A stretch of DNA of 64,000 nucleotides from Marsupella aquatica. Its lineage: Eukaryota > Plantae > Marchantiophyta. How positions within the stretch are numbered: the first letter of the stretch is position 1; every line of letters starts with the position of its first letter. Location: assembly GCA_973895155.1 (NCBI GenBank), contig OZ316893.1, forward strand, positions 23,582,015 to 23,646,014, in the 5' to 3' direction. Below are positions 14,486-38,402 of the stretch, one piece after another. Below the pieces are notes generated by a model that was not told where the DNA came from, did no database searches, and worked only from the letters and a program-made list of their open reading frames with translations. Both the position numbers and the translations under genes were made by a program.

Positions 14486-15620
14486 CACTAGTACATTTTT
14501 GGGCCTTTATTCAATAGGATTTATATCAGATCCCTTTAGGAAAATTGACGCAGAAATTTCTATCATCCGATGCAATTCCCGACGCACTTTGTGATGCCCA
14601 AACCATCGCATATCAACCATTGGACTTCCATCGGACTTTCTGATATTTTGGGAAACGGACGTTCCGTTGTAACGTGTTACAGATATTTTATGTCCGATGT
14701 AAAATGAATCGGATAACTAACACACGATGACACATGACGACTTCCTTTGTCCGATCCTATTTAAATCGGAATGTCCGATAGATTTCATATGGCAATTTGT
14801 GTAGTAATTAGTATCGGACATTGCGTTAGTTAGAAAAATGGAAAGTGCGTTATTTTTGGTATCGGACTATCCAATAGATTTAATATGGGAACCTTGAAGG
14901 AGGGGTCCGATGCGTTGGGGATGGGAAAGTTCAAAGGCAGCAGCATCGGACACTGCTGTATTACCGATACGGATGGTAACGGACTTGCAACGGATTATCA
15001 AATGTTATGGCCTGGGGGTGGAATATAGGGTTTCATGGGTGGTTTGTTGGGGATTTGGGTATTGGTTTAGGGTTGAAGGTGACATACACCAATTAGGAAC
15101 CAAAGATAATGCTCTAAACACGAGGTCAAAATATCATATTCAAAAAGGGGATCACCCCAATATGTACAAAATGGATTAGGCCTACCGGGTAGACCCATCC
15201 TGGTCGTGATGGCACAATTTAGAGAGCTTTGATTAGAGACTACACTAGCTATATACAAGGTACCTCCTAGTGAGTGTCTAATCAAAGCTGTCTAGCACTA
15301 GATACCCACCTAAATGCAACTAACCTCTAAAAAGGTGTGTTGCGTCCCTTCTTCTTCAAGTTTGGGCAAGAACGAAGGGTGGGTACAAGTCTGGCATGAT
15401 GAGAGCCCTCCTCCCTTTGGCTGCCCACAACCGTGGCAGCCATCTGCTCACCAGATGGCATGGGTTGGCCTGATGCAGACCTAGACCCTGACCCACTAGA
15501 TGCACTGATAGGGTGGTCAGGCAAGGTAGATGTCCCACCAACCCCCGACATGGCAGAGTGAAAGGAGGCCTCAGCTCCTCTCGCCGACCTGCTAGAGTGA
15601 TGGGATGGTGCGCTGACAGA
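14486..15620. mobile_element. Orphan left end of a CACTA element of the same family as 17525-27776
   Basis: Starts CACTAGTACATTTT with TCCGAT/ATCGGA subterminal repeats paralleling 17525-18000. Carries the 3' end of a minus-strand ORF (15327-15551, ..KKKGRNTPF*) resembling the end of 18319-19698. No matching right end or TSD found. Confidence 0.75.
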
Positions 15621-15698
15621 TCCTGTGGGTGGCCCATGTCGTGTTGTACACCCACCGTGTTGTTTAGACCTAACTATGCCTGTACCTCATATTGCAGG

Positions 15699-16457
15699 GA
15701 ATATGATATGCAAAAAGCTGCACACTCTGGGCAGCAGGATCCCTTCCCACAGTTCAAGTAGTGGATTCGGGTGACAATTCGAGAACATAGTAGACATCAC
15801 CCAGATATGGAGAAGGATTTGTATCTTCTATCTGTGCCACCACGATTGTCTATTCTGACCTATAAACGGATGAGAGCTTATGGAAATCATTATCGAGTGA
15901 GGGATGAGCAGGGTGACCATTGTGTATCATATGATTGTGGTTTGATTTCTGTGTTTGAGCAGAGAACCTCTGAAGAACAGAGGGGGTGGATGAAGATGGG
16001 TTACGTGGGGGAGTTGACCGACATTTGGGTGTTGAATTATGGTAACACAAGTGTCCCAGTGATATTGATGAAGGGATCATGGGTGAAATCAGAGTGGCAG
16101 AGACCAAGGGCCACCATGAAGCGTGATCATGATGGGTTCTTGTTGGCCAATTTTAGGTCCAGAGTACCAGAATGGTTTGAGCCTTTTGTTTTCCCTAGCC
16201 AAGTTGAACAGGCTTTCTTTGCAGATGTGGAGGAGTCACATGGCTGGAGGGTGGTATGCCATAGCCAAGCACGGAACAGGCGGATGGATGGAAGTAAAGT
16301 AGAGTTCAGTTTGGATGACCATGCTACATTCGAGCATCCTAGTCACGAGACTGTACTTCCAACTCGGGCAGGGACTGACTACATCCCCTTAACATTGAGA
16401 GAGACATATGATGAACCTGGGCAAATGGAATATGATGAGGTTGATGATTTGCAATAG
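15699..16457 (+). pseudogene. CACTA transposase C-terminal exon (DUF4216-like)
   Basis: YGNHYRV..DCG..YVGELTDIWVLNY..KGSWV..EPFVFPSQVEQAFF..WRVV is homologous to 26500-26984; in-frame TAG near 15760. Confidence 0.85.
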
Positions 16458-18318
16458 GCAACAGCTGGCGATTGGCAAGTATGAGGTTGAGGATGACTAC
16501 CTACACAGAGTCACAGAATGGGAATTGCTGCCTGGAATGATGTTTAGGATAGTTGGATATGCATGAAATTGATTGATACTTTGAATTTAGTGTGCTAATT
16601 CTCTCTGTTTGGTTGTGGGTGCTGTGCAGAAGCTATGGGGGAAGAGGGTGATGACATGGAGACAGACATGGGGCTTGGAGAGTGGGGTGAAGAAGGAAGA
16701 TTGGACATGGATGGAGACCTAGATGCAGGGGGCTCACAGAAAAATGCACCTGTGCAGGATGCACAGGGCCCTCATCAAGTCCTAGGTAGGTGGGCAGCTA
16801 GAGAGAAATCACATAATCCATACCCTAGAAGTAGCCAGAGTTATTGGCAAGGGACGCCTGATAATTATGATGATGACTATGATGGAGCAGAAGATGGATG
16901 GGATGAATATGAACACCCAGAGCGTGGTAGAGACGAGTACAGAGGGCAATGGAAAGGTGAGGAGGATGATTGGACAAGTAAGTGCCTTGTGCTAGTGATT
17001 TTGTGATGGTAGTAGAGATTTAGCTCAATATGGACTTATCCGATGTGTAGCTACTAGGGCAAAGAGTTTATCTTACAGGTCCATGAGTGTGGCATGTACT
17101 TGTTGGTATGCAGACTCTGATTGGGACAATCACGAAAACAACAAAGGCCATCCATGTTCAGATAGGAGGCAATCATTCACAGGCGGGAGAAACGGCCCTA
17201 ATTCAGCAAGACAAAGCAATAGGACAGGTGGTCTAGAACCATCTATGCGCCAAGGGAGAGGTAACTTGGTCATTGCATAATTGCTCTGAAGTCCAGTGTA
17301 TATTTGGCAGCAGGATTTATGATTCATACTTACCTAATGGATCCTGTAAATGTGCAAGGACTCCAGGGAGGTTTGGACAATGCAATCCAGGCCGTGGGGG
17401 GAGATCAGGCCGTGGAGGGACCCCAGGCCATGGAGGGACCCCAGGCCGTGGGGGGACACCAGGCCGTGGAGGGACACCTAGTAGCGCTTCAGGGAGTACC
17501 AAGGTAGGAGACAGTAACAAATTTCACTAGTACATTTTGAGGCATTTTACCGATTGTATTTAGATCGGACGCCTTCAGGAAATCCGACGCGGAAATCTCA
17601 CCTGTCCGATACCAAAAGAATCGCAATTTCCGATATAATTTTATCGGAAAACGACAATCGGAAACTAATCGGAACTACCGATACCAAAACATTCGGGAGT
17701 TCCGTCGCCTAAACTGTCGGGAAACACTATGTCCGATGCCCGCGTAATCGGATGTCTGTTTCACGCATTTTCTGTTAGTGGAGGCGTCCGATTCTAGACC
17801 GATATTCTGGACATGGAAATGACCGATTGGTTTAACATCGGAAATGTCCGATGTTATTTGGAACGGAAATTGCGATTATAGTAGAATCGGACTTTGCGAT
17901 ACGTTTGGGATGGAAAAGTACGATGATTGTGGCATCGGATATGGATCGGTATCTACCCGGAAACTATTTGGCGAGCTTGATTGGGCCTATTTTAAATGGG
18001 GGGCTAATTGGGGGTTTAATTGGGGTGCAATGTAATTCTTTAACTGAGTTTTTATCTAGGGTTTAGAGAGGTCATTTAGTCAAGAGAGACTATCAATTTT
18101 GATTGCACACTATGTACCTTGAAACCCGGGCATGACACGGCATAACTATATCTTATATACAAAAATGAAATATCGAGGGCAAAAGTACAAAAAATGGAGA
18201 ACATCTCCATGCATAGTGCCAGCTATGCTAAAGGCTGGGCATATCAAATGGACATAATGCCCTCCAACTATCCACCTCGCTAGCCTGGTACTAGATCTAT
18301 ACATGTCTACCTAGTCCA

Positions 18319-21239
18319 CTATCCATACAAGCTATGTCGCGTCTTCCTCTTCTTCACACGGGAACGACTAGGCTGCTCTGCTCTATGAGTCTCTACCGCT
18401 GACACACCAGGTAGCACATCATGGTCGTGGCTACCTGATCTGCCTCCATCGTCATGTGGATGAGGTGCAGAAGCAATCTCTGGTACTCCCCCACCTCCAG
18501 ATGCGCCTGAACCATGGGAAGGCACTCCTTCCCCGACACAAGTGTGGAAAGAAGCCCCTCCAGCACCACCACCACTACCCCCCTCAGGCCGAGTCTCACC
18601 TCCACCACTATGACGGGAACCTCCCGACTGGGTGCCTACACCACCACTATGAATAGGATATGGTGTGGGCACATGACCACCAAGGCCCCCCCCGGACTGT
18701 CGCAAACCAGCTGGTACACTACCAGGGCTAGCCCTAAACTGATGAGGTGCAGCAACTCCACCACTACCCCCCTCAGGGCGAGACTCACCTCCACCACTAT
18801 GGCCGGAACCTCCAGACTGGATGCCTACACCACCACTATGAACAGGAGATGGTGTCGGCACATGACCACCAAGGCCTCCCCCGGACTGTCGCGAACCAGC
18901 TGATACACTACCAGGGCCAGCCCTAAACTGACGAGGTGCAGCAACTCCACCACTACCCCCCTCAGGACGAGACTCACCTCCACCACTACGGCTGGAACCT
19001 CCAGACTGGATGCCTACACCACCACTATGAACAGGAGATGGTGTGGGCACATGACCACCAAGGCCTCCCCCGGACTGTCGTGAACCAGCTGGTACACTAC
19101 CAGGGCCAGCCCTAAACTGACGAGGTGCAACAACTCCACCACTACCCCCCTCAGGGCGAGACTCACCTCCACCACTACGGCCGGAACCTCCTGACTGGCC
19201 AACGACATGACCAGTATGAACACCAGCCCGTTGTCGAGACCCACCTGGTACAACACCAGGGCCAGTCCTCACTCGACCACCTGCTGTGGCTAGAACTCCA
19301 GACTCACTACGAACCCCTCGGTTGTGACCTATTGTGGCTGGAACCCGGGACTCACTCCGTCCACTCCTACCGGCTAATTTCTGACGAGAAGGAGGCATAT
19401 CACCTGCTCTATGCTCCATCCGGCGAGTGGAGCCACCTACACCCCGACCAGACTGGTGACGTCCACTCTCTCGGGGTCCTGACCGGCCACGTGCACCAGT
19501 AGAACCTCGTACTGGAGCCTCAGCCACACTCCCCTCTGAAGCACTATCATCCTCCGCATCCTCCTCATCCTCCTCCCCCTCACCATCCTCCTCACTCTCC
19601 AAGTCCTCCTCACCCCCTGACTCATCCTGCACATAGTAACAATCTCCAATCCATATGTCATTCCGCAACATACGTACCAGCATGAAGCCATCTTTCAAAT
19701 CATTCTAATATCCGCACTTACCGAGGCCAACATGTCGTCCATGTGAATCTTTAGCGCCCAAGCACCATGCTCCTTTGCCAGCTCTCTCTCTGCCGGCAAC
19801 AATGGTCGTCCGTGCTCTTTCTCCTACACACCCAAACCATATGCCACCCCCAATACTAAGGTCAATTATAGCAACCCTACCCTGGCCTAATTAAACACCT
19901 ATATAAACCCTTCACCGTCAAAGACCCATAAGAACACTTAGCCGTTCATGCACAAACTATTCAAAAATTTGAATATGTCCGATACTAATAGAATCGGTAC
20001 CCTCGACAGTTCCGATTCTTTTTTATTGTCCGATGCTGCATCCGATACTTAGAGGATCGGACTAGAATCGGACCTTACATGCCGAAAGCAAAAAAAACTA
20101 AGGCATGATCGAGCGACCTACGGGCATACAAAGACCTGTCCCGGGTTTGGAAGGGTTAGGCATTCGTCAATTGGCCTCAGGTGATTAGGGAGGAGGAATG
20201 CTGCTGAAGGAATGCATGGAGAGGAGGGGAATGGAGCACTTACAAAATCGGCCTTGAGACGCTGTGATCCGCCTTGCCCCATTTTGTGAGTAACCTTTGG
20301 CCTCTTTGTTACTCTCAGCAGAGCTTTCATTAGCCAGGATGGTGGGTCTCCAAGCAGGGCTGATTTTGTTGACCATTCTTCAAGTTCTTGATGCATGGGT
20401 GCAGTATTCACCATCTCTCCTTGTTCAATCTTCTTCTGAGCTGCTTGAATTTCAGCTTCCCAACGTTGTGTGGCTTGCCAAGCTCGAACCTGCAACTCTT
20501 CTTCAAGCCGGGCACACCAAGCATTCTCAGGAATCTCACCAGCTGGGCTTCCCCCTTTGCTGATCACCTCCTCATCCAGTTTGCATTCAGCCAGGTACTT
20601 TTGCATCTTCTCTCGTACATGATTTTGCATGTCTGCAAGTGAGACTGAGATCTTTTTGTTTAAGAATCGATCGTCCACAAACGACCCATTCGAAAATCTC
20701 TCTTTGATTTGCTCTCGAATTCGAAATCTCTCATCCTGCTTCTTCTTCCCCCAGTAGTCCATCGGGCCAAAATGAGACCTCACAATCTGCCTAACTTGAC
20801 TCCCAAACAAACGATAACTCCTGGAGAGTGGAGCACCTCCCTCATTCAGAAACAATTTTGGCCTCTTGGCCCTATCCTCTGCCTTCTTTCGTTCCTCCTG
20901 AATTCTCTGTCGTTCTGCAGCCCGAGCCTCCCTCCTTAGGCTCTTCTCCTTTTGTCTTGGTGATAGGGCTTCCACTGGCCTCTCTCTCTCGTCCTCCCTA
21001 GTGTTACGTTTCCTCTTCCTCTGCAATCTCTCCTCCTCGAGTCTGGCTTGGAAAGCTTTTTCTGCATCAGTGATGGCTACCTTCTGGGAGCTGTCGATCA
21101 GTCCTTGAGTGAGCTGGGCTACCTGCAATGCAACCTCCGGCGAGAGCCCCACCTTCTCCCTAAACAATTGAGCCATGACTTCACCATAGCTGCTTGATGG
21201 CCCGGCACCATCTCCCATCCCTCCCGCATTCCCTTCCAT
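18319..21239 (-). CDS. TnpA-like accessory protein of the CACTA element, probably 3 exons, with a Gly/Ser-rich repeat tail
   Basis: Exons at about 20244-21239, 19722-19823 and 18319-19627 with GT-AG borders; coiled-coil/basic region and HKMGQGG motif; lies inside the TIRs. Confidence 0.65.
18560..19200. repeat. Coding tandem repeat, 189-bp (63-aa) unit, about 3.4 copies
   Basis: TCCACCACTA anchor at 18601, 18790, 18979 and 19168; peptide GGGESRPEGGSGGV..RQFRAGPGSV..GGHVPTPSPVHSGG repeats. Confidence 0.9.
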
Positions 21240-22303
21240 CGCTACTAGCTCCGCAAAGGTATCGTGAAATGCTCCCGATGCTTTTCCCGACTAGAGTGCC
21301 TTCGCACTTTAGTCGGGTGACCTAAAAACCCAAAATGCATAATGTCCGATACTTTCTGCATCGGAAACTCCGATTCTAGGTCAATCGGACTTAGTATCGG
21401 ACCCCTCCTCCAAAGTATCGGACTTAACCCTCCCAATGTATTTTCTGATGGTTTGTGAATTGCATGACCTTGGCATTTGGACTTTGGCATTTGGATCCCA
21501 TGTATACTATAATGACCCCCTTTATGTTAGTTGGGGGTTAATTATGCTATATTGTGGGCTTATTAGGTGTGCGGCGCAAAACGGGCATATCAACGTACAG
21601 TTGCCGTGACAAAGCTAGCACACTATTTTTTGGTGGGTATGGATGATCATTGAATGTATGTACCCAGATCTATTTTCAGTTTGATTTTAAATGATTCCCA
21701 TTTTGACCATGAGGCAATGCTATATGCATGGTGCAACTTTTGGGGACTATAAGAAGTCACAAATTAAATTAACACTCTAGTGCCGTTTTGGCAGTTTTGT
21801 ATTTTTTGTTTTTGGAGGGTCGGGTCGTTGCTTTTCCTTGGTTTTCTTAGTAGGGTTTATTTTTGCCAATGCATTATGCACAGCGAGAGTACGCGCATCC
21901 AAAAGGTATGACATATATGATCCTCCAAAATGTATTGGAAATATTTGACATGATATATGCGTTACTTGTGGGAGTTTATAATTGGACATCCAACTCGTCA
22001 TTGATTTTTATTAATTTCATTAATTATTGGTTTGTTACTTAGGTTTGCATGTATGTCATCTCATCTTTCAACTTCCCCACCTAGCCTGTATGTGCAGGTT
22101 TTTTTGGATTGGCCTTAGCATATAGTCTAAGGCTTAGAGCCTAGTAGGCACTGTAGAGCGCGGATATCATTCAGGTACTAATTAAGTCCAACACTGCAAA
22201 TTATTAACATACTATATATTTCCTGTTTGGGTTTACCTCAAGTGAGGGTGATGAATCAATCTTGCATTTTGGTAAAGACTTGTTTGTGTGTAATTGGCAG
22301 ACA

Positions 22304-25300
22304 ATGTCGACTTCTGAGAGTTTGGATACAGATTCCGACTCTGACTTGTCTTCCTCTGAGGGGGACATTCCTCCTCCCCCTCAACAGCCTTGAGCACCCC
22401 CTCCACTAGGCCCTATTCCATGCTGGTGTCTTAGATGTAAAGGACTGGTGGTTCGTCAAGCGTGGCAGTCCATTGAACACATCAAAAACTATGGTCGACA
22501 TGAGGGTGATTTACCGGGATATTCAGCTCGCCAGGTATTGCTTGACATGAACTCCGCTATATATGATACACTATCATAATAGTTGGCTGGTTTGAGACCT
22601 TTTAGGAGACAAGTATTAATTTTTGTTTGTTTATGATTGAATAGGTGCGTTGTAGGGCCCGTCCTCCATTGGTCTCTAGTCAACTATGGCATGATGCATT
22701 CCTAGCTGGTGCTAGACAGTTGCTTGCATCATCAGTTGAAGACCCCGAGCAATCATGTACCCCCGCACATGTTCAGGCAGATGTTGTTCATGAACCCATA
22801 GTGGTAGAGTTGGGGCATGGTAGGGATGATGCACCGCCCCCTACTAGGGTTCTACGCACAAGACCACGTTCTCATAGACGTCGACAACAGCATGTAGTTC
22901 TAGACACAGACCCATCCCATGAGCACTTTAGAAGGAGTGTTATGCCTCCACCAGGGGAGGAGTACATAGAAGTTGAAGGGAGGTTGGGCTTGTCATATGT
23001 GACGGGAAAGGCAATCAGTGTCTTCAAGGATTTTGACCCTGAGAGTTTTGCGATTCCTCGTGGCCTAGCCATTGACATCCCTGTACATATATGGGGTCGG
23101 CAATGGATAGTGAAGGCATCGACCCTTGGCGGGGAGGTTGGGTTAGGCTTATTTGCTTTGGAGGACATTGAGGTCCCTCCAAAGCCTTGGTGTCGTGGCT
23201 ATGATGGGGAACACCTTTTCCCTTACATTGGGCCTGTGTATACATCCAAGAGTTGGAACATCCTCTTGCGCCAACATCCAGCTTGGGGGGTATATGCATT
23301 GCAGATGGACTCAGACCCAGATGAGGTCCTAAGGAGGCCTTGGCATTGTAGGATGATTGATGGGGACCCTGTCCGTTCAGATAACATAGCTGGGTACATC
23401 AATAGTACACATGGTAGAGGGAGTGGACTCCAGCCTAATGTAGAGTGGGCTCAGATTTTTGGCCCACCCACTCCGCCTTACTATGTCACACATATGGATG
23501 ATCATGTTATGACAGTAGCCATACGGACCATTAGGGCGGGTGATGAGTTGTTTTGTGACTATGAATGGAACGCACCCACGATGGGCATTCGATCTGGCCA
23601 CACTTAGCACATATGTGTATTCCCCATTTTTGAAGTAATATAAGAATATTGTAGTTTTTTTAGGAACCCATGGGCTAACTCAAACGTATATATCTGTTTT
23701 GTGCGTTGTATGATAGAATGCATATGTTGAGCCGGATGTTGGGGTGTTACCACGAGCTATGCGCCAACACCTTGTGCAGGCCATGGAAGATTGGCGACAT
23801 GCCTCTCTACCACCAGATGGCGATCCGGATGTTCCAGAGCAGGAACCAGATGCCTCCCAATCAAGAGTTGATGAAGATAGGGCCATGGATGACTTGATGC
23901 ACCAATTCTATGACATAGAGGATGGTGATCATGACATGGTTGATGGGGAGAACATTGAGGTCCCACTTCCACATCAAGAAGGTTCAAGGAGTTCAGCCTC
24001 CAAACAGTGGGAGGAAGCACGTCAACATGCGCAAACTCGGATATTTGATGGATCACGCTTGTCTCGTCTTTCAGCAATAATGTTGTTGTTGAACTTGCAG
24101 CAAAGACATGGAGCAAGCAACCTACTTCTTGATGATCTCTTTCGGACATTGCATGATTGTATCTTGCCAGAAGGAAACAACTTGCCAGACTCTTGGAAAG
24201 AGGCAAAGAAGGTGTTGAAGTCCATAGGTCTGCAGTACAAAGTCATACATGCTTGCGTGAATGATTGCGTTCTGTTTAGAGGCACTTATAAAGATGCAAC
24301 GTCATGTCCTACATGTGAGAAGCCTAGGTATCGTGAGGACATGTTGACGGGAAAAGTTCCTCAGAAGGTCATGAGGTACTTTCCTCTTATACCTCGTTTG
24401 CGCCACCAATATAGATGTGCTGAGTTGGCTGAGTATATGGTTTGGCATTCCCAAAATCACTCAGATATGAGTTCACAACCACCCACCATGCGCATGATGG
24501 TTGACTCCCCTGCAAACAAGTTTGTGGAGGAGAGATGGGGTGAGTTCCGAACTGACCCACGTCATGTTCACCTAGGAGTGGCAGCGGATGGCATCAGCCC
24601 ATTTGCACTAGCAGGTAAGGCCCAACCATATTCACTATGGCCAGTGGTCCTTACTAATTACAACATCCCTCCATGGATGTCCATGAAGAAGGGTCATTTG
24701 CTCCTTTCCATGATTATCCCTGGTCCTAAGCAAGTGAAAAAAATTGATGTGTACTTGCAACCATTGATTGAGGAGCTACAAAAGCTTTGGAGTGGTGTGG
24801 ATTGCTATGATGGTCAAGTGCAAACGGGGGGCTTACGTCGAGAATTTAAGTTGAAGGCCATTCTTATGTGGACCATACATGATCTTCCAGGTATGAATCT
24901 TTGTTAAATTATCCCTTCCCATAGCTAGGCAACCGTACCTAGCATACTTTGTTATGTATTGAGTTAGCTAGAAGCACATATATCTTTTAATAAACTTATT
25001 TACTTATGCATGGGATATATATTTATATGCAGGGTTTGGATATATTTCTGGCCTGACCACATCAAGATATCGAGCTTGCCCAACTTGTGGACCTGATTTG
25101 GAAGGAATAGCGCGGCCAAAGTCAAAGACCTTGAGGAAGATAGTGTATATTGGTCACACCAAGTACCTCCCTCCAGACCATGATTGGAGGAGAGACCCCT
25201 TTTTATATGACACTGAGGATGGCCAACCAGACAGACGACCACAACCTATTCCAAAAGATCCTGCATATTGGAAAGAGGTATGGGAGAGAGTATCTAATCT

Positions 25301-26984
25301 AGATGACCCATTGCAATATGCCCGGTGTGGCATGACTTGTTTGTCTGCATTGTCACAACTGCCTTATTGGGCTGAGATGCCACTTAACCATTTATTTGAC
25401 CCTATGCACATTGAGGGAAATGTTGGGAGGTCCTTGATTCGCCACCTATATGGAGAGAAAGACAACAACTGGAGAGAGAGTTGTGAAGAGATGGGGATGC
25501 ATGGCCCTCATGGTTTTTGGCCATCTATGGATCCCGATAATGCCCCCCTTACTATTCATCCTCCTTGGGTTTTGACACGAGGTGAGCGGACCGAGTTTCG
25601 CAAACGCATAGGGTCTATGCGATTTCCTACAGGGTATGGTGCCAATCTTCGCAAGGCATTTGGTGGACTTGACTCTCCAAAATGGCCAGCTTTCTTGAAG
25701 ACCCATGATTATCATCGCTTATTGCAACATGTTATTCCAATTGCTATTATTGGATTGGGTAGTGAGGATCTTCGTGATGCCCTTTGGTCGTTGGGTAAGT
25801 TGTTGAGATGGGTGTGTCAAAAGGAGGTGAACGAGGATGAGGTTGCAGCAATGGAGGTGTTTGGAGTGGAGGTTGTGTGCAAACTTGAAAGGGCCCTTCC
25901 TCCTTCATTTTTTGATGGTCAGGTTCATTTTCTACTACATCTAGTGCGTGAGGTTGGTATTGCAGGCCCTGTACATTGTCGTTGGATGTACTGGGTAGAG
26001 CGGTACATGGGAGTGATGAAGTCCTATGTTTCAAATCGCGCAAGGGTGGAAGGTAGCATTGCAGAGCGTCATCTTGGAGCAGAGAGCATGTTTTATTGTA
26101 CAAACATTATTGCTACACTTGATTCAAATGCTCCAAGCGGGTGGATAGATGAGGCATCAAGAGAAGCAGACTATGAGGATGACCGTTTGACAGGTGCAAA
26201 GGGAGAACGGCTTCTTGACCCTAGTGAGCGCACTAAACTCACTGCATTCATGTTGTATAACTCTCCAGAGATTGTTGGGGAGTGGACCACATTTTATGAG
26301 GAGGATAAGCACAATAGTCGACGACCACGCTTATTTCCCAAATTCCACATGTACATGAAGGGGAAGTTGTTAGAAGTGGATGCCTTGGTGGCTGTTGGGG
26401 AGAGTGTATCACACTTCCCAATGGTGACTGATAAGTTGCGCACCTTGGTTCATGGACCTCTACTTACAGTTACAACCAGGACTGCCATGTGGTCCAAGGG
26501 GAGACACTTTCGTGTGGAATGACTTGATGACAAGAGGGCAGCTACACAAGATTGTGGGGTGATGGGTTGGTTCACCTAGGATTCTGTAAGTAGCAGATCT
26601 GACACAAATCCCATCCGTTCTACTATAGCTCACTATGGAAAGATAGAGGAGATCCTTGTTGTAAAATACCATGCGCATACAACATTGGAAGAGGTGGTGC
26701 TGAAGTGCAAATGGTTTCGGATGAATCTTGTTGGCCACAATCGAACATGTGAAGAGGATGCTTGCGGCTTCACACGACTGAAGACAGGGGCTGTCATCAG
26801 CTCAAATTGGAGGGCCTCAGATCCTTTTGCATTTCCTCATAATCTTGAGCAGGCATTCTATCTCCCTTATCCAGATGATCCTGAGTGGTCCATTGTAATG
26901 CCTTACATTCCACGATCCCGATCCATAGTCCAAGAACAGCCAAATGTAGTTGTTGTGGAAGATTTGGAAAATGAGAACAACTAG
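22304..26984 (+). pseudogene. CACTA transposase (TnpD-like: Zn-binding N-terminus, Transposase_21, DUF4218, DUF4216); 1119 codons with 3 premature stops
   Basis: Exons 22304-22534, 23717-24890 and 25033-26984 join in frame. Motifs CWCLRC..EH..YG, IHACVNDCVLF, ADGISPF, WTIHDLPG, DPMHIEGN, KTHDYH, WMYWVERYM. Stops at 22391, 26520 and 26577. Confidence 0.93.
22645..23607 (+). CDS. SET-domain (lysine methyltransferase-like) exon inside the transposase first intron
   Basis: Open 320-codon frame after acceptor AATAG; SET motifs GLGLFALEDI, YIG, IDG, NIAGYINS, PNV and AIRTIRAGDELFCDY. Confidence 0.88.
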   Translation: MRCRARPPLVSSQLWHDAFLAGARQLLASSVEDPEQSCTPAHVQADVVHEPIVVELGHGRDDAPPPTRVLRTRPRSHRRRQQHVVLDTDPSHEHFRRSVMPPPGEEYIEVEGRLGLSYVTGKAISVFKDFDPESFAIPRGLAIDIPVHIWGRQWIVKASTLGGEVGLGLFALEDIEVPPKPWCRGYDGEHLFPYIGPVYTSKSWNILLRQHPAWGVYALQMDSDPDEVLRRPWHCRMIDGDPVRSDNIAGYINSTHGRGSGLQPNVEWAQIFGPPTPPYYVTHMDDHVMTVAIRTIRAGDELFCDYEWNAPTMGIRSGHT

Positions 26985-29900
26985 CTACTTAGGAATTTCA
27001 TGGTAAAAGCTAGGTAGCTAGCACTAGCTAGACCTAATTAATGACCACTTCCCTCCATGTATTGATTTTTTTGGCATATATATGTTATCTACATTGTCAT
27101 TACCATTTTTTTGTTGCATGTTACTTTACTTATATATACCACTTAAATCTCTGGGCTCTAGCTGTGGCTATATATTTGTGCTTTTAATATATATGAAATG
27201 AAAGCTTCCAATTCATTTCAAGTTGACCCTAGTTGAGTTCCCACATACTTCAAATGGAAATGGAGTCAAAAACCTATCGGAAACACAACATGCCTTAATT
27301 AGAAGCTAGGAAGATGATAAAACCCTCAAAAAACCCTGGCTCTACTGAAAACCGATATTTCCGATATTAAAAGAAACGGAACACATATGCCATACTACAG
27401 GTATCGGGAAACATTGGAAATGATGTCCGTTTGTAATGAGTTCGGACACAAGTCGGAACACATTTCCGATTCCAAAAATATCGGAAATGTTTCGTCCCTA
27501 AGTTCATCGGAACCAACATGCGATATTTTATTTATCGGACGCCTCTTGCGTCGCGGCAGTCTCATTGTCCGATGCAGGTAGAATGGGAAATTGTCCGATA
27601 GTTTTTACATGGGAAACTATTTCCGATTCTAATAGTATGGGACAGTATGTGTCCGATGTAGAATTTATGGTAAATCCCCGATGCGGGGACAATCGGAGAG
27701 TACCGATCTTCTCTGTATCGGAAAGTGTTGCCGACCGAAAGAAGAGCATCGGAAAAACCCAAAATATGTACCAGTGTTTGGTAAAGTAGAAGTGAATTCC
27801 GATGGTTGGATAACTCCCACATGTGATGGTAAGAACCGTTGGCATTCTGACCTAAGAGGAGAAGTATTGCGTTGGTTAGATTTGAGCATTACAGAGTTTA
27901 GGAGTCAAAACAAAGCTGATTGGGCTGCTATCTGCAAGGACATTCTTGAACGGTGGGACTATGTTGGTAATGATGGTAAGGGCCCAGTTGAAGATTGCAT
28001 ATCAGATTATGCAATGAGGATTTTGAAACAAGAGAGGCATAGGTTGAAAAGGTTGTGAATAGACAATGGTTCTAACAGGAGAATGCCACCACCCCCATCA
28101 TTGGAATTGGATCAATGGACACAGTTAATCAAAGGGTTCATGTCGGAGGCTGGGCAGAGCAAGAGTGAACTGATGTCAAATGCTCGAGGCAAAGTGAAAC
28201 ACCTGTCACAGGCTGGGAGAGGAAGTTATGCTCCAGTGAAAGAACAATTGGTAAGGCAGTGACATGCCTGATAGTAAGCCTCAAACTTATCATCTTGCTA
28301 CCATTATTACATTTTCATTGACAATCAACACTTGGTTTCATTCATATGTATGTTGATGTGGACTGCAAAAGAAATTGACAGGTGAAGAACCATCAGCACA
28401 AGAAGTGAGAGAGGAGTTCATGAAACAAAGGAGTGAGGTGACAAGTGTGACTTCCAAACAGGTGATTATGTTGTAATTTTGTATGTTCTGTGACTATTTG
28501 GCCTTGAGCATCAGAAAGAATTGTAGTAGGAAGTAAGCAACCAGTTCTTGGGGATAATTATCTGAGATATGTAAGCTGTGTTATGACAGGGAACTGTTAC
28601 AACTCTCACAGAGATGTGTGAACGGTTGAAGTCATTAGAGTGTGGACTCCCTCGAGTGGAAAGTAAATTGGCTGATCGTTTGGATATTGTGGAGGCATCT
28701 GTAGCGAACCTTCTTGCATCAGTGGAATCTAATTTCAAGCTTGTGATTGAAAAATTGGGTGGTTCCCAACCAAACAATGAGGGCAACATTGTACAAAGTG
28801 TGCCCTTGTTAACAAAAAGGGAATTGGCAAATCTGACACAGGTATGGAAATAACACCGACCCATTGTTCATTGTGTCCTATGTTCAAATGTTAGAAGTAA
28901 GTTTTCATGAATTGAGTGAATGGTTTGAATGCAGGAAGAGTGGAGGCAGAGAAGGACCCTGTAATCAGTAAGCAGAATGGCAAAAAGGTTGCTGAGACAG
29001 GTAACCTGCTATGATCCAGTACATTACATTTGAAAAGTGCATGGAGTTTTGTGAAGCTTAAGCCGGTTGGAGGTAATCTTTTCTGTAAGAACTGGTTGGA
29101 TCAACTGGAATCTGAAGTGACATCATGATTGATGTATCAGGTGATTCAAAGAGCAATGAAAAAGATGTGCCCAGTGCCTCAGTGACCATAGCCAAGGAGG
29201 TATCAGGTAAGTTGATGCTTTAAATTCCTCTCCTACCATTGTTGAGAAACAATTTAGTGGTTAATAGATTGAACTTGAATATTGTGGTGTGTTTATTGAT
29301 CAACAGAAGCAGACATGGAGGATATGGCAATGGCAAAGAAGGGGAAGAAGGCTGTTCATAATGGTAAGGAGATAGTGACAACTTTGTGGTTGGTGACATG
29401 TACATGGCGCACATGTGATGAGTGATTCACTTATGTTGGACAATGCACTGAATTGTAGTTGATGTAGAGTTGACAGACTCTCAACCAAGTGGGAGCAGGG
29501 TGAAGCGACGTCGAAACTTGGGAGCAACATTGGATGCAAGTAAGATTGTAGATGCTTCAATTGAAGCAAGTACAATGTTGGCAGATACTGAGATGATGTC
29601 GCAGGGAAATCCTGCTACACAATCGAAAGTGTCAAATATGGATGCAGATTCTTTGAAGAAGAGTGTAGCCAATTCTCGATCACCATCACAAAACACTCGT
29701 GCCAAAGTCATGACTCGCAACCAAGGTATGAATAATGTCATGTATAAGCCACCCAGGAAAGCCAAGAAAAACAGCCAGGGTAAGGTGGAGGTGATAGCCA
29801 CAGCAGAGCCAGTCCATAATCTTCTATCATGGGAGAATGACTCGCAGGTATGTGTGGGTACAGGCATTTTGCGACCGGATCATGCTAAATTCCATGGCAA

Positions 29901-30505
29901 AGTGGTCCCGGATGACCATGTAGTAGTGTTGTTGACTACAGTGATTGTATCTGATTGTAATTTGCCATTTCCGAATAGAGACGATGATCCACCTCAAGAA
30001 ATAATTGCAGATGCAGTAGGATCTCTTGTGCTCTGGCCATCAGAGTGTGTTAGTCTGCAGTGACTGAATACAAGTGTAGATAGAATCATGTGAATTGTGT
30101 TACATTTTGACATTGCCTTGGAAAAATCCAAGAAATATCTGTACCAATTTTTCCATTTGGTAAAGAGGATGAAGGAGCCGTTGTGTGTGACATTGATATT
30201 TCTGAATTCTGTATGTATGAAACAAGTGATTGATGTCAAACTATGGCTCTATGGTGATTGTCTATGATACTTGAATCTGTTTTGTATCAATTCAGTATTA
30301 GTGTGTATGGTATAGACGAATGCTTTGTGACCTTCTTTGTAGTCTATGATGTTTGAATCTGTGAATTCATATTAGTGTACATGGTATAGAAGATGGCTTT
30401 CTGAAAATTTGTGTGAGGTTCTAATGTTAACATGGTGAATGGTGACCTTATAGAGTGAGTTCATTCCAAGTACACAATAAAACATGAATGGAATGTGTTA
30501 TTTGT

Positions 30506-33500
30506 TGTCGCGTCCCTAACCTGGGCCTTAAATCCAGTTTAGTGCCATGGCGCGACCTCGACCACCAGTAGGGGTGAGGGTTCGGGCAAGGAGGTGTGTA
30601 GTGGCCCTGATTAGCCCTAAGTCGGGCTAAGCCGATATACTTACTGGTATAACACTTAAGCAATTCGTACTAGTCATAGGTATCTTTTATTTTCCACCGC
30701 TGGAATCCTCCCTCAGTTAGTGACTCGGACTAACTCCCGGCTTGGGGCTTTTCAAGCCATCGACGCGACAGAACCTTGTGACATACAATGGGTGGCAATC
30801 CCTATCATTAGTCCGCACCCGGTACATCCCTTAAAATGGTGCCTTTGCCCAAACAAAGCATACTCACAACTCCAGTTACTTGCGGAAACATTAGAGGGAA
30901 AAGACTACATTTACTCAGCGAAGCATCAGTTTACATGGTTGACTCGACTTCAAAGGGGGTCAGTAGGCCCAACGGCAGTCGATGCCCAGTCTCTACGAGG
31001 CCCCGCCTCGCACTTGCCCAGCAAGCTCGACTCTGGCTCTCACTCCTTGGTGCGCTCTGACCCTGCTCAGGCCGGGACTCCCCGTGCCTCACCTTTCTTC
31101 TGCTGAGATAACTAAGCCTTCTCCCCCTTCCATAGCGGAAGGGGAAGCCTAAATACTACAGTTTGCAGAAGAGAACCGGAGGATACTACCTTCCGGGATA
31201 CTACCTACTGACTAACTACCTTCTGACTACTGGCCATGCCGCACTGACTGGTTGACCGTCGACGACAAGGGTGCCGACCGGGATGGCAGTGGCCAAGCCT
31301 ACTGACAAAAATCTAGTCCGTTGATGGACTCCATCCTACGTTGGTTGATCCTAATTGATCCGGCCCTAATTCTTCCTACTGCCGCTAATCGGCGCCTAAT
31401 GACAGCCATTCTGTCGTTATACCTAACCGAAAGATGCCGCTGACTTAACTGCCTCGCGCGGTGCCTGCTTCCACCCTTCGCTAACCACCCCTTACGTGTG
31501 TGCTGTGGTTGGACCAAGGCTGGTCCCCTTGTCAGGGCGACACCTCAAGCCGCCTTGATCAGAGGTGGGCCCAGGTTTTCCCCGCTAGAGGACGAGCAGG
31601 GTAACGTGGTCCTGCAAGGCCTTGTTGTCCCGCACCGCCTCCTCCGCCTCATTTGCAGCTTCATCGGCCTCGGTCTGGAGCCGCGCTACCTCCAGGTTGA
31701 GCTGGTTAATGGAGTCGCGATGGATTTGGTCCTGCGCCAGCAATTTATCCCATTCGGCGGAGAGACTAGCTACCTGCTGTGCTGCCTGCAGGAATTGTTT
31801 ATTAAGGTCGGTCAGGTTGGTAACCCGAGCCGAAGATTCTGAACGTAATTGAAGCACGGTGTCGTCCAGCTTCTTGAGATCTGCTTGCACTCCGCTTAAC
31901 TCGTGGGTTAGTCCGTCCCTCTGTTCGACGGTGCGGACTAACTCCTCGCGGCGGGTAGTGGCCTCCTCCTCGAGGTGCTCTACCAGCATCTGGAGGCGGC
32001 CGATTTCATTCCCCTTCGCCATGAGTTCTTCTTCCAAGCGGCTTACGATCCGTGGTTGGTGCTCTAACATGAAGAAGGCTGGTTGAAAGTACGCCAAGAC
32101 TTGTTGTCCGATGTACGTTGCCAGCTCCCCAGACATAGTCTGGCTAAACTTCTGGACCAGGTCGTAGGCCATGGTCCTCGGGGCTACTTGGTAGTCCTCC
32201 ATCCTCTCGGGTACCGGTGGTTCCTCGGGCGGGGCAACGAGCTCCTCCGTAGTCTGTGCTGGGGAGGGGAAGGTTTCTTCAGGTTGTGGAGGGATTGGGG
32301 GTGGTTGTACTACGGGTAGCGAAGGCTCGACGGAAGGGGGCAGCGGAATTTCCACAAGAGGAGGTGGCGGAGTATTAGTCGGGGCTTCCGGCTCGGGGTT
32401 TGCCCGAGGGACGGTAGTCCGCGCTCTCGGGGTATCCTCCTCTGGGGCGGGGGTGACATTAGTCGGGGCTGAGGTGGCCATATTCTTTCCTCTGGCCTCC
32501 TGCCGTGCCTTGTACCAGGCGAGGATAATGGCGATATGACTTCCCAAGTAAGTCTTCCCCCCAATAGCCATACCACCCTGAGCCCGCTTCAGCTCCCCCG
32601 AGAATCTTTGGTAGAAGAATTGGGCCCAGTTCCGCCGTTTGTACTGTTCCACCTGCACGATTGTGTAGAGGGAAATCTCGGATCGTGGCTCAATCATGTG
32701 TAGGGTAGTCCGTATGAAGTTAAGATGCTCCATGCAGATTAAGTTGGTGCACGACCCCTGCTTGTATCCGTTGTCCGTCTTACCCTCGGGTTTGAAATGC
32801 CGCGGTGTATACTCCTTATCCCGAATTCAAAGTTCAACCGGCACTGGCCCGGTTGGCAAGCAGAAGATTTGCGTTAACCGATGCTCCGTGAGGGATAAGG
32901 CCTGCCCCAAAACCTTGGTGGTCGATGCGTCAGTGTCGAAATTGGAGATGAACTCACAAATCTCCTTCGGCCCAGCGGCGCATGGCCTCCATAGCAAGTG
33001 AGCGAACTGCTCCAACTGATGCTCCTTGAGATAGTCTGCATGCTTGAGTTTCTTGATCGCGATCCAGACTACTTCGGGGATGTGGATTACCTGTAATAAG
33101 TTGGACTTCGGGTTATCCGGGGGCCGTCAGGTCTGGTTGGCCGGGGGGTTTGCCGGGGTAGATGCAGGCGCGGCATTGGTTTGCGTTGTTGATTCGGAGG
33201 CCATCGTCATCCTTGGTCGCTTACGAGAATGTTGTTCGAGTTGCGGACTAACTCGCTCGGAACCCAAAGAACACTCTGTGTTGATCACTGGACGGACTTG
33301 GGACCGGTTCGGCGGTACGCCGGTGGTCATCGGCTGAGGCACTGGTGGTATCGGGGTAGCCATATCCCAATTGAAGGCATTGGAGCTTTCCCCGAGGAAC
33401 GTAAGATTACGCGCCGCTTCCCGTTGTCTGCTGATGTCTTCTTGACGCTTTTCGGCTGCGATCTGCTGGTCTAGGTACCCCGGAATCTTATCAAACTCCG

Positions 33501-34360
33501 CTTGAGTAAGCCGCTGGCTACCCTTCAGCTTAAAGAACTTCCCTGGGACTTCAAGAATCGCCTCTGCTACCGATCTAAGCCCTTCCTCGCTGAGATATAG
33601 TTCGGTGATGTAGTCTCGCAGCTCGTTGTAGCTGGAATCCCTGGTGATGGCTGTCCTTTCGCAATTAACCAGTGCTACCTTGGTCACCAACTTCACGTAT
33701 CTTCGTTCGTAAGCGGCTTTCTCGGGACAAGAGTACCAGTAAGTCTTGGAGAACTTAGCACCTACCTCGCCAAACAAGGTCCAGAATCCCAAGGCTGTAA
33801 GGGTCATACTAACCTCGTAGTCCGGTTCGTTGAGTCCACGTTCCCACCCGGCTGGTCCTTTTGCTCATGGAGGCCTTGCTCGTCCTGACTAAATCTCGCC
33901 ACATTCCGCTCTTATCCCTTGATAATCTCCTTGTAAAGGTCGACTTGATTTGATCAGAAAGGTGAGTGGATGGCAACGTCCGCAAATTCCAAAAAGGTGG
34001 AATTGAGCAAATGGCCCGCAGCACCATCGGCTCCTCTCTTATGGAGGTGCCAGGGTGAGCCCGAGCGTGAGAAGGCCAGGCTGTTTTGGTCATTGATAAT
34101 GAGCTGAAGTCAGCGCCTCGGTCCAAGCGTGATTCTTCTAACTGATTTTTACTCCGCTGCCACCACCGTACCTCGGTCGCGCGTAATAATCCTCTTCCTA
34201 AACTTGTAATCATTCGGTCATCTTAACCTACTCCTAATCTATTCACAATGGCAACAGACGGCTATACGTGCTATTCTACGCTACGGCTACGGTTCTAACA
34301 TCCGTATAAGACCTAATCTACGACCTGGGTTCGGTTAAGTGACACGTTACCCGTGTCACA
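30506..34360 (-). mobile_element. 3855-bp TGT...ACA element (solo-LTR-like) with an internal gene
   Basis: Begins TGTCG, ends GTGTCACA; 5-bp TSD TTTGT (30501-30505, 34361-34365); no internal direct repeat and no gag/pol motifs seen. Confidence 0.88.
31585..33807 (-). pseudogene. Single 741-codon frame: N-terminal domain, plant-mobile-domain-like region, Pro-rich linker, coiled coil
   Basis: ORFs 33127-33807, 32827-33015 and 31585-32733 are in one frame, separated only by two TGA codons; homologous to 52334-54987. Confidence 0.85.
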
Positions 34361-37694: not shown

Positions 37695-38300
37695 CAGGAC
37701 TCGGACAACAAGGGCCAAGGAGTTCAAGTCCTTCTTAAGGACTTTCAGTTCTTTCTTGAGCACTTAAAGTCCTTCATAAGCACTTGAAGTCCTTATTGGA
37801 GTCGTGGGGCAAGGACTGGGAGTCCTTCGGCCATGACTAGGACTTGGAGTCCTTGGGCAGAGTCCTTGGGAAAGGACTAGTAGTCATTGGGCAAGGACCC
37901 CGAGTCCTTGGGAAAGGACACGGAGTCCTTGGGCAGAGTCCTTGGGAAAGGACTAGTAGTCATTGGGCAAGGACCCCGAGTCCTTGGGAAAGGACATGGA
38001 GTCCTTGGGGGAAAGGACACAGAGTCCTTGGGAAAGGACACGGAGTCCTTGGGGGAAAGGACACGGAGTCCTTGGGCAAGGAGAGGGAGTCCTTGGGCAA
38101 GGACCCGGAGTCCTTGGGAGTCCTTCGGAGTCCTTGGGGAAGGACCCCGAGTCCTTGGGGAAGGACAGGAGTCCTTGGGCAAGGACACTTAGTCCATCGA
38201 CAAGAACACTGAGTCCTTGGCTAAGTCCTTCGATAAGGACTCTAAGGATTTACCAAGGACTTGGAGTGAGGAAGGACTTGAAGTCCTTGGGAAATCCTTG
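37695..38300. repeat. Minisatellite of ~21-bp quasi-palindromic units GAGTCCTTGGGnAAGGAC
   Basis: About 20 successive GTCCTT...AAGGAC units. Confidence 0.92.
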
Positions 38301-38402
38301 CAAAAGTCTGTCGAGTGAGAAAGTGCAAGAGTCTTTGGTTAGTTTGTTTGATTCAAATTGTTGAATTCTTGATTTTGAGAATGAGGTGCTTCAGTTTTGC
38401 AG

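Follow-up and report, generated by a model that had tools for sequence, protein, structure and literature searches.

What is a SET-domain frame doing inside the transposase gene of a CACTA transposon, and which proteins could be made from such a gene? The locus that raises this question is a 10,252-bp CACTA element at positions 17525-27776 of a 64-kb stretch of Marsupella aquatica DNA, which was analyzed at its full length and is referred to below as the window. The answer we favor, with a probability of roughly 0.6 and on the strength of sequence comparisons, is that one gene of the element would yield, by alternative splicing, either a Cys/His domain joined to SET or a Cys/His domain joined to the transposase, the SET protein being a likely lysine methyltransferase that would serve the element. 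The parts of the gene are:

22304..22534, plus strand: exon 1 (231 nt, phase 0), ending CAG/gtattg, with an acidic/Ser N-terminus followed by CxCxxC-x12-HIxxYG
22535..22644, plus strand: predicted intron 1 (110 nt, gt..ag, phase 0)
22645..23607, plus strand: SET exon of 320 codons, following atag, phase 0, identified by Pfam and structure prediction
23608..23716, plus strand: AT-rich spacer (109 nt), in which the SET mRNA is predicted to end and which would form the last part of the long intron in the transposase mRNA
23717..24890, plus strand: transposase exon 2, acceptor tag/AAT, phase 0, Transposase_21
25033..26984, plus strand: transposase exon 3, with the end of Transposase_21, DUF4218 and a DUF4216-like region, and stops at 26520 and 26577

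According to the proposed mechanism, the predicted first intron of the transposase gene would hold a conserved SET exon, and one promoter would give rise to two proteins depending on the choice of the 3' splice site. Splicing to the near acceptor (22645) would produce a protein of ~397 residues, comprising the Cys/His domain, a linker and SET, and ending at 23607; splicing to the far acceptor (23717) would skip 1182 nt and join the Cys/His domain to the DDE transposase. By analogy with TnpA and VANC, the shared Cys/His domain would direct the SET isoform to whatever DNA or partner the transposase reaches, and the isoform, likely an S-adenosylmethionine (SAM)-dependent lysine methyltransferase, would work on chromatin to the advantage of the element.

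The element has the features of the CACTA/EnSpm superfamily, i.e. CACT(A/G)-type terminal inverted repeats (TIRs), a 3-bp target-site duplication (TSD), subterminal repeats and a transposase of the Tnp2/TnpD type. Transposase_21 (PF02992, E 1.8e-39) and PF13960 (E 8.8e-30) are both above the cut-off and the DUF4216 match is just under it; identity to a grass CACTA transposase is 37% and 27%, and a phase-1 intron (24891-25032) separates exons 2 and 3. Exon 1 with its Cys/His motif and phase-0 end, the phase-0 acceptors before the SET and transposase frames (atag precedes both) and a stop in exon 1 were already described in the initial annotation, made from the letters alone, and all were found as described. 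That stop, TGA at 22391-22393, together with those at 26520 and 26577, means that this copy of the element is dead. In 4/4 runs compared at each site, however, most or all of the depth has C at the exon-1 site and nearly all of it has C, not T, at the two exon-3 sites; the three stops are therefore a property of this copy and not of the family.

The SET domain and its probable activity

The region 22645-23607 is a true SET domain, as had been claimed. PF00856 is the sole Pfam domain of the frame (30.2 bits against a cut-off of 22.4), and the exon comprises an N-terminal helix, a disordered Arg-rich linker and a folded core at approximately residues 103-310. AlphaFold predicted the core, with 51 sequences, at pLDDT 92.4 and pTM 0.88 (an earlier run on the whole exon with 18 sequences had been poor, pLDDT 60). 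Structure comparison against 48,161 representative chains (VIA) placed SET enzymes at the top, namely PRC2/EZH2, COMPASS Set1, SET7/9 and SET8 (Z 11.3-11.8, root-mean-square deviation 2.5-2.9, 124-136 residues aligned), with the SET domain of SETMAR in row 29; since the top matches are tied within 1 Z unit, the substrate is not readable from the fold.

The motifs of the window copy read GLGLFA, FPYxG, NIAGYINS, PN and GDELFCDYEW, in agreement with the earlier description of an open frame of 320 codons that keeps GxGLFA and ELxxDY and has YINS for the canonical NHS. Across 73 full-core rows of the family, which include some redundant cluster members, GxG and (Y/F)xG are each kept in 71-72, the Asn of motif III in 69, the Ser next to it in 71, the Glu of motif IV in all 73 and the catalytic Tyr in 72. 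The family version of motif III is GYINS(S/T), with the Asn retained and the His replaced by Ser (71/73 rows). When motif III was located by pattern it was readable in 73 of 127 new rows, with S at this place in 71, C in one, R in one and H in none. Given this family-wide conservation, YINS is a signature of the subfamily, and its interpretation as decay of this copy was rejected; the family defines a His-less SET subfamily.

Could the gene be spliced as proposed, and the SET protein nevertheless be a non-catalytic binder, or methylate something other than a histone, for instance the transposase or a host protein involved in silencing? The replacement of the His throughout, the absence of the post-SET Cys cluster from the family rows and the tied structural matches, among which no host SET class stands out, would fit such a role. 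Against it, the SAM-site Gly, the motif-III Asn and the catalytic Tyr are nearly invariant, and LegAS4, the best sequence match in the PDB (a first PDB search with SET gave E>=0.3 only), reads YINFS, likewise without the His, and is an active H3K14 methyltransferase according to the accessible part of its description (10.64898/2026.05.29.728679). The motif H/RxxNHxC is called important for activity in the available portion of PMC4146578, where active PRDM proteins are also said to depart from it. The activity of the SET family is plausible in the light of LegAS4 and the non-canonical PRDM proteins. We regard a non-catalytic or non-histone role as unlikely and consider the SET protein, judging from its conserved residues, to be probably active; that its substrate is a histone would be an even bet.

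Exon joining in the transposase gene

The window was compared with 24 metagenome loci, of which the two weakest (L023 and L024) carry bacterial-type SETs; the loci are mostly near-copies of one family and were therefore taken to represent two, L002 and the L001 type. In the window and in both of these families, the donor of exon 1 and the two acceptors, before SET and before the transposase, are present and in phase 0 (7/24 loci hold the donor and both acceptors). Alignments of the window's intron and spacer with those of L002 and the L001 type are no better than chance, with 36, 70, 57 and 189 of 300 shuffles scoring as high, and the splice sites have thus outlasted the surrounding sequence, which was replaced. 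The TAG before the SET frame and that before the transposase frame are each in-frame stop and acceptor alike.

The junction between exon 1 and SET is very likely, to judge from related sequences. In the window no Met precedes residue 100 of the SET exon, whose first 30 residues are nonetheless conserved. The Calypogeia model CAM6082608.1 joins exon 1 to SET at the predicted point, the Riccia models P0121, P0131, P0154 and P0178 also join the two, and the Logan open reading frame (ORF) P0123, from a 2141-nt contig derived from RNA or DNA, encodes both the Cys/His domain and SET without a change of frame. The junction between exon 1 and the transposase also appears likely, with slightly less assurance. 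Exon 1 encodes CWCLRC..HI..YG and resembles the transposase-associated N-terminal Cys/His domain of CACTA transposases: when 1259 peptides of the window were scored with a profile built from the N-termini of 45 CACTA transposases, it ranked first, its relatives match the same profile with E 0.003-0.009, and two of them give weak matches to PF13963 (E 0.012 and 0.031, under the cut-off). P0052, the nearest full-length transposase, begins with the Cys/His domain.

Several observations weigh against alternative splicing to a SET enzyme and a transposase. The match of exon 1 itself to the transposase N-terminal domain is weak (E 0.08, under the Pfam cut-off); the joins of exon 1 to SET in gene models are predictions; a direct junction of exon 1 with transposase exon 2 occurs in no retrieved protein from a SET-bearing element; and no splice-site joints were found among the listed contig matches of five runs, whose contigs are of unrecorded kind. 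Several Riccia models instead read on from SET into the transposase, with junctions that vary in position. A Met is present at residue 15 of exon 2 and at residue 4 of the L001-type SET exon, so that independent starts are possible. The canonical motif III H/RxxNHxC is incomplete in the SET family, and within the L001-type family the ratio of nonsynonymous to synonymous substitution (dN/dS) is 0.45-0.91 (for the four pairs listed), which indicates decay, as expected after insertion.

Some of these points would suit a split gene, in which exon 1 serves SET only and the transposase, which would have a promoter of its own or use a different upstream exon, starts at the Met of exon 2. Every retrieved model containing exon 1 goes to SET first, and Arabidopsis EnSpm families alternate between spliced and split-gene layouts, as stated in the accessible part of PMC13547354. 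Against such a layout stand the phase-0 tag/AAT acceptor, which is kept in all three families although the spacer preceding it has diverged, and the occurrence of CxCxxC within the first 200 residues in 45 of 62 retrieved CACTA transposases, and we consider it improbable.

Alternatively, the SET exon might be spliced onward into the transposase, giving a SETMAR-like fusion. The Riccia models P0053, P0115, P0178 and P0189, along with others such as P0160, P0193 and P0232, do continue SET into exon 2, but the point of joining differs between copies and in most cases the catalytic Tyr is lost, as would be expected of annotation artefacts. In the window no GT follows the catalytic Tyr ahead of the stop, and in all six relatives checked the sole GT is out of phase; with no in-phase donor past the Tyr in 7/7 copies, a full SET-transposase fusion is unlikely. 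A SET stop and a spacer are moreover conserved. The fusion was rejected on the stop of the SET core and the missing donor, and we assign it a small residual probability.

Family, selection and known counterparts

Does the exon belong to the element, or is it a host fragment carried by chance? The profile search returned 134 clusters at 50% identity, 40 of them with E<=1e-30, and no canonical host SET (one long match, P0234, seems spurious); by sequence, the SET family is a diverse, self-contained subfamily. Its closest named relative, from the leafy liverwort Calypogeia fissa, shows 58% identity over 98% of the exon, and named members are found in C. fissa and Riccia sorocarpa (liverworts) and, distantly, in the fern Adiantum nelumboides. 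The viral contigs searched contain no relative. SET look-alikes comprise giant-virus and algal SETs in Atlas and viral SETs in BFVD (TM ~0.45), and no donor lineage is indicated by Atlas, BFVD or the bacterial-type loci.

With the latter set aside, 16 of 22 loci have a transposase exon or acceptor 110-220 nt past the SET stop; among the other six, four end too early, L018 is broken by an insert and no transposase is seen in the distant member L022. SET and transposase sequence also occur together in the Riccia models P0053, P0115, P0178 and P0189, and the SET exon lies at an equivalent position in at least four element families. A transposase tree of 29 rows was built from the window, two loci, four models from Riccia, P0052 and, out of the 61 remaining matches, every third one. 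A branch supported at 82/73, which is not decisive, sets the seven SET-linked rows apart, and together with P0052 they are separated from 21 other CACTA transposases by a branch at 100/99.

The initial annotation had named dN/dS across family copies as a check. The exon is present in many copies, and for the SET core dN/dS (NG86) is 0.22-0.27 between the window and seven loci, with synonymous divergence (dS) near saturation and infinite against L002, and 0.26-0.31 between L002 and the same seven loci, at dS ~0.47; these values are not neutral. Among the majority differences listed, 5/6 in SET residues 95-310 are synonymous and most in the N-terminal linker alter the residue. As judged from these comparisons, the SET core is under purifying selection between families. 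CACTA elements often capture host gene fragments, and within-family copies decay near neutrally, but the between-family ratios, the equivalent position in different families and a profile set with NS-type motif III and no canonical host SET led us to reject passive capture and neutral evolution, which retain almost no probability.

Two side observations were made on the family. In more distant GYINS-type SET groups (P0171, P0180, P0236, P0179-P0243), among them two further Calypogeia proteins and one Adiantum protein, the exon-1 motif is absent, and these groups may belong to mobile elements of other kinds. In L018, positions 517-2201 of the minus strand hold Gag and reverse-transcriptase-like ORFs of retrotransposon-like character, which interrupt the SET exon.

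SETMAR, in which a host SET gene was joined to a mariner transposase and domesticated as a single-copy gene, was cited as a parallel in the initial annotation. In both cases SET adjoins a transposase, but the element described here is mobile and multi-copy and its SET and transposase are likely separate products; the analogy fails because of the missing GT donor between the catalytic Tyr and the stop.

The comparisons that follow reflect the accessible portions of the papers cited. SET genes have been described in HarbingerS and MuDR families of Phytophthora (PMC12730594), and a SET plus DNA-methylase accessory gene in Plavaka, of the EnSpm superfamily, in a Bostrychia preprint that also cites Helitrons with SET (10.1101/2025.02.11.637652). 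HarbingerS, MuDR and Helitron elements are, like ours, DNA transposons carrying a SET methyltransferase gene, but they belong to other superfamilies and hosts, and their SET is an accessory gene and not an exon of the transposase gene. The Plavaka PAG2 of red algae comes nearer, since it too is a PF00856 SET in an EnSpm-superfamily DNA transposon and has been proposed to modulate chromatin. By its description, PAG2 differs in being a gene of its own, in which SET is joined to an adenine DNA methylase (PF01555), with a transposase of a different lineage, while the SET exon described here lies inside a land-plant Tnp2-type (PF02992) transposase gene, whose first exon it likely shares. Maize En/Spm and Arabidopsis ATENSPM3 produce TnpA and TnpD by alternative splicing, and TnpA-Spm3 causes hypomethylation of its own family (both PMC13547354; 10.64898/2026.08.24.746577). 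Here, as there, one CACTA gene would yield a transposase and a regulatory protein; the alternative product is the DNA-binding TnpA in En/Spm and ATENSPM3, and a predicted SET-fold enzyme in our element. The term 'SET domain' is absent from the accessible text of these two papers, and that of PMC12477816, 10.1101/2024.09.22.614159 and PMC12973397 does not mention a SET-bearing CACTA family.

VANC of VANDAL elements, whose anti-silencing role has been shown experimentally (PMC12730594; 10.1101/2025.02.11.637652; 10.64898/2026.08.24.746577), is an element-encoded protein directed against silencing, as is proposed here, but it is not a SET enzyme. By such analogies, an anti-silencing role may tentatively be suggested for the SET isoform. 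A more far-reaching scenario, which we think rather doubtful, is that of an old bryophyte CACTA lineage encoding a histone writer as a splice isoform of its transposase, which would be directed by the Cys/His domain to the element's DNA or transpososome and deposit there a mark blocking host silencing, the splice choice switching between protection and jumping.

As to novelty, no description of the land-plant layout was found in the open literature (Repbase, subscription journals and supplements lay outside the search), but the novelty is narrower than the initial annotation suggested, SET genes as such having already been described in HarbingerS, MuDR, Helitron and Plavaka elements. A land-plant CACTA element with a SET exon in its transposase gene thus appears to be undescribed in the literature searched; transposon-borne SET genes and alternatively spliced CACTA genes are each known singly.

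To our knowledge, few transposons carry enzymes against host silencing, and no functional test of a transposon-borne SET protein was found in the literature searched. The compact, well-folded predicted enzyme described here occurs in land plants with tractable relatives, which makes the idea directly testable. If it is true, CACTA alternative splicing can plug a whole enzyme into a transposase gene. In liverwort gene sets, copies of this family already appear as host 'SET domain-containing proteins', and chromatin genes can be overcounted as a result.

Element ends, accessory frames and surroundings

The remaining features of the element are:

17522..17524, no strand: left TSD, TTT (end-pair test, empty site)
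17525..17950, plus strand: left TIR CACTAGTACAT and CCGA/TCGG subterminal repeats (end and repeat analysis)
18322..19704, minus strand: 461-codon Gly/Ser/Arg-rich ORF in the left arm, with 3.4 copies of a 189-bp tandem repeat and an acidic N-terminal stretch (ORF list)
20121..21290, minus strand: 390-codon ORF pointing away from the SET/transposase gene (ORF list, locus comparison)
27350..27776, plus strand: right subterminal repeats and right TIR ATGTACCAGTG (end and repeat analysis)
27777..27779, no strand: right TSD, TTT (end-pair test, empty site)

The pair 17525/27776 is the best TSD-bearing end pair among 2240 candidates. The left end reads CACTAGTACAT and the right end, on the reverse strand, CACTGGTACAT, the TIRs being identical at 12/15 positions; the CCGA/TCGG subterminal repeats form two clusters (17500-18000 and 27000-28000). 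An empty site, with the joint 17521>27777, is present in contigs of 4/4 public runs, and the boundaries are therefore real. The TIR pair, the TTT on both sides and the empty site confirm the TIR- and TSD-bounded CACTA element initially reported.

The element is nested within a second CACTA-like element (14486-17524 plus 27777-30063), which ends at 14486 in the same 11 bases and contains a weak remnant resembling DUF4216 (15996-16286) and exon-like ORFs past 27777; no matching right end was found within the 64-kb window. The contig depth of the flanks of the SET element is several times that of its left arm.

The 461-codon ORF has no Pfam match. The 390-codon ORF has none above the cut-off and no match in Atlas; its homologues occur at an equivalent place and in the same orientation in five loci (L005, L006, L008, L010 and L012). 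It is likely to be an accessory gene and is a candidate TnpA-like or targeting factor.

Outside the element, two long GC-rich ORFs of 413 and 245 codons at 31585-33864 of the minus strand, one of them coiled-coil-like, show no Pfam match above the cut-off and possibly lie within a retrotransposon starting near 30500. At 37717-38313, copies of a 21-bp unit are densely arrayed, some direct and some inverted.

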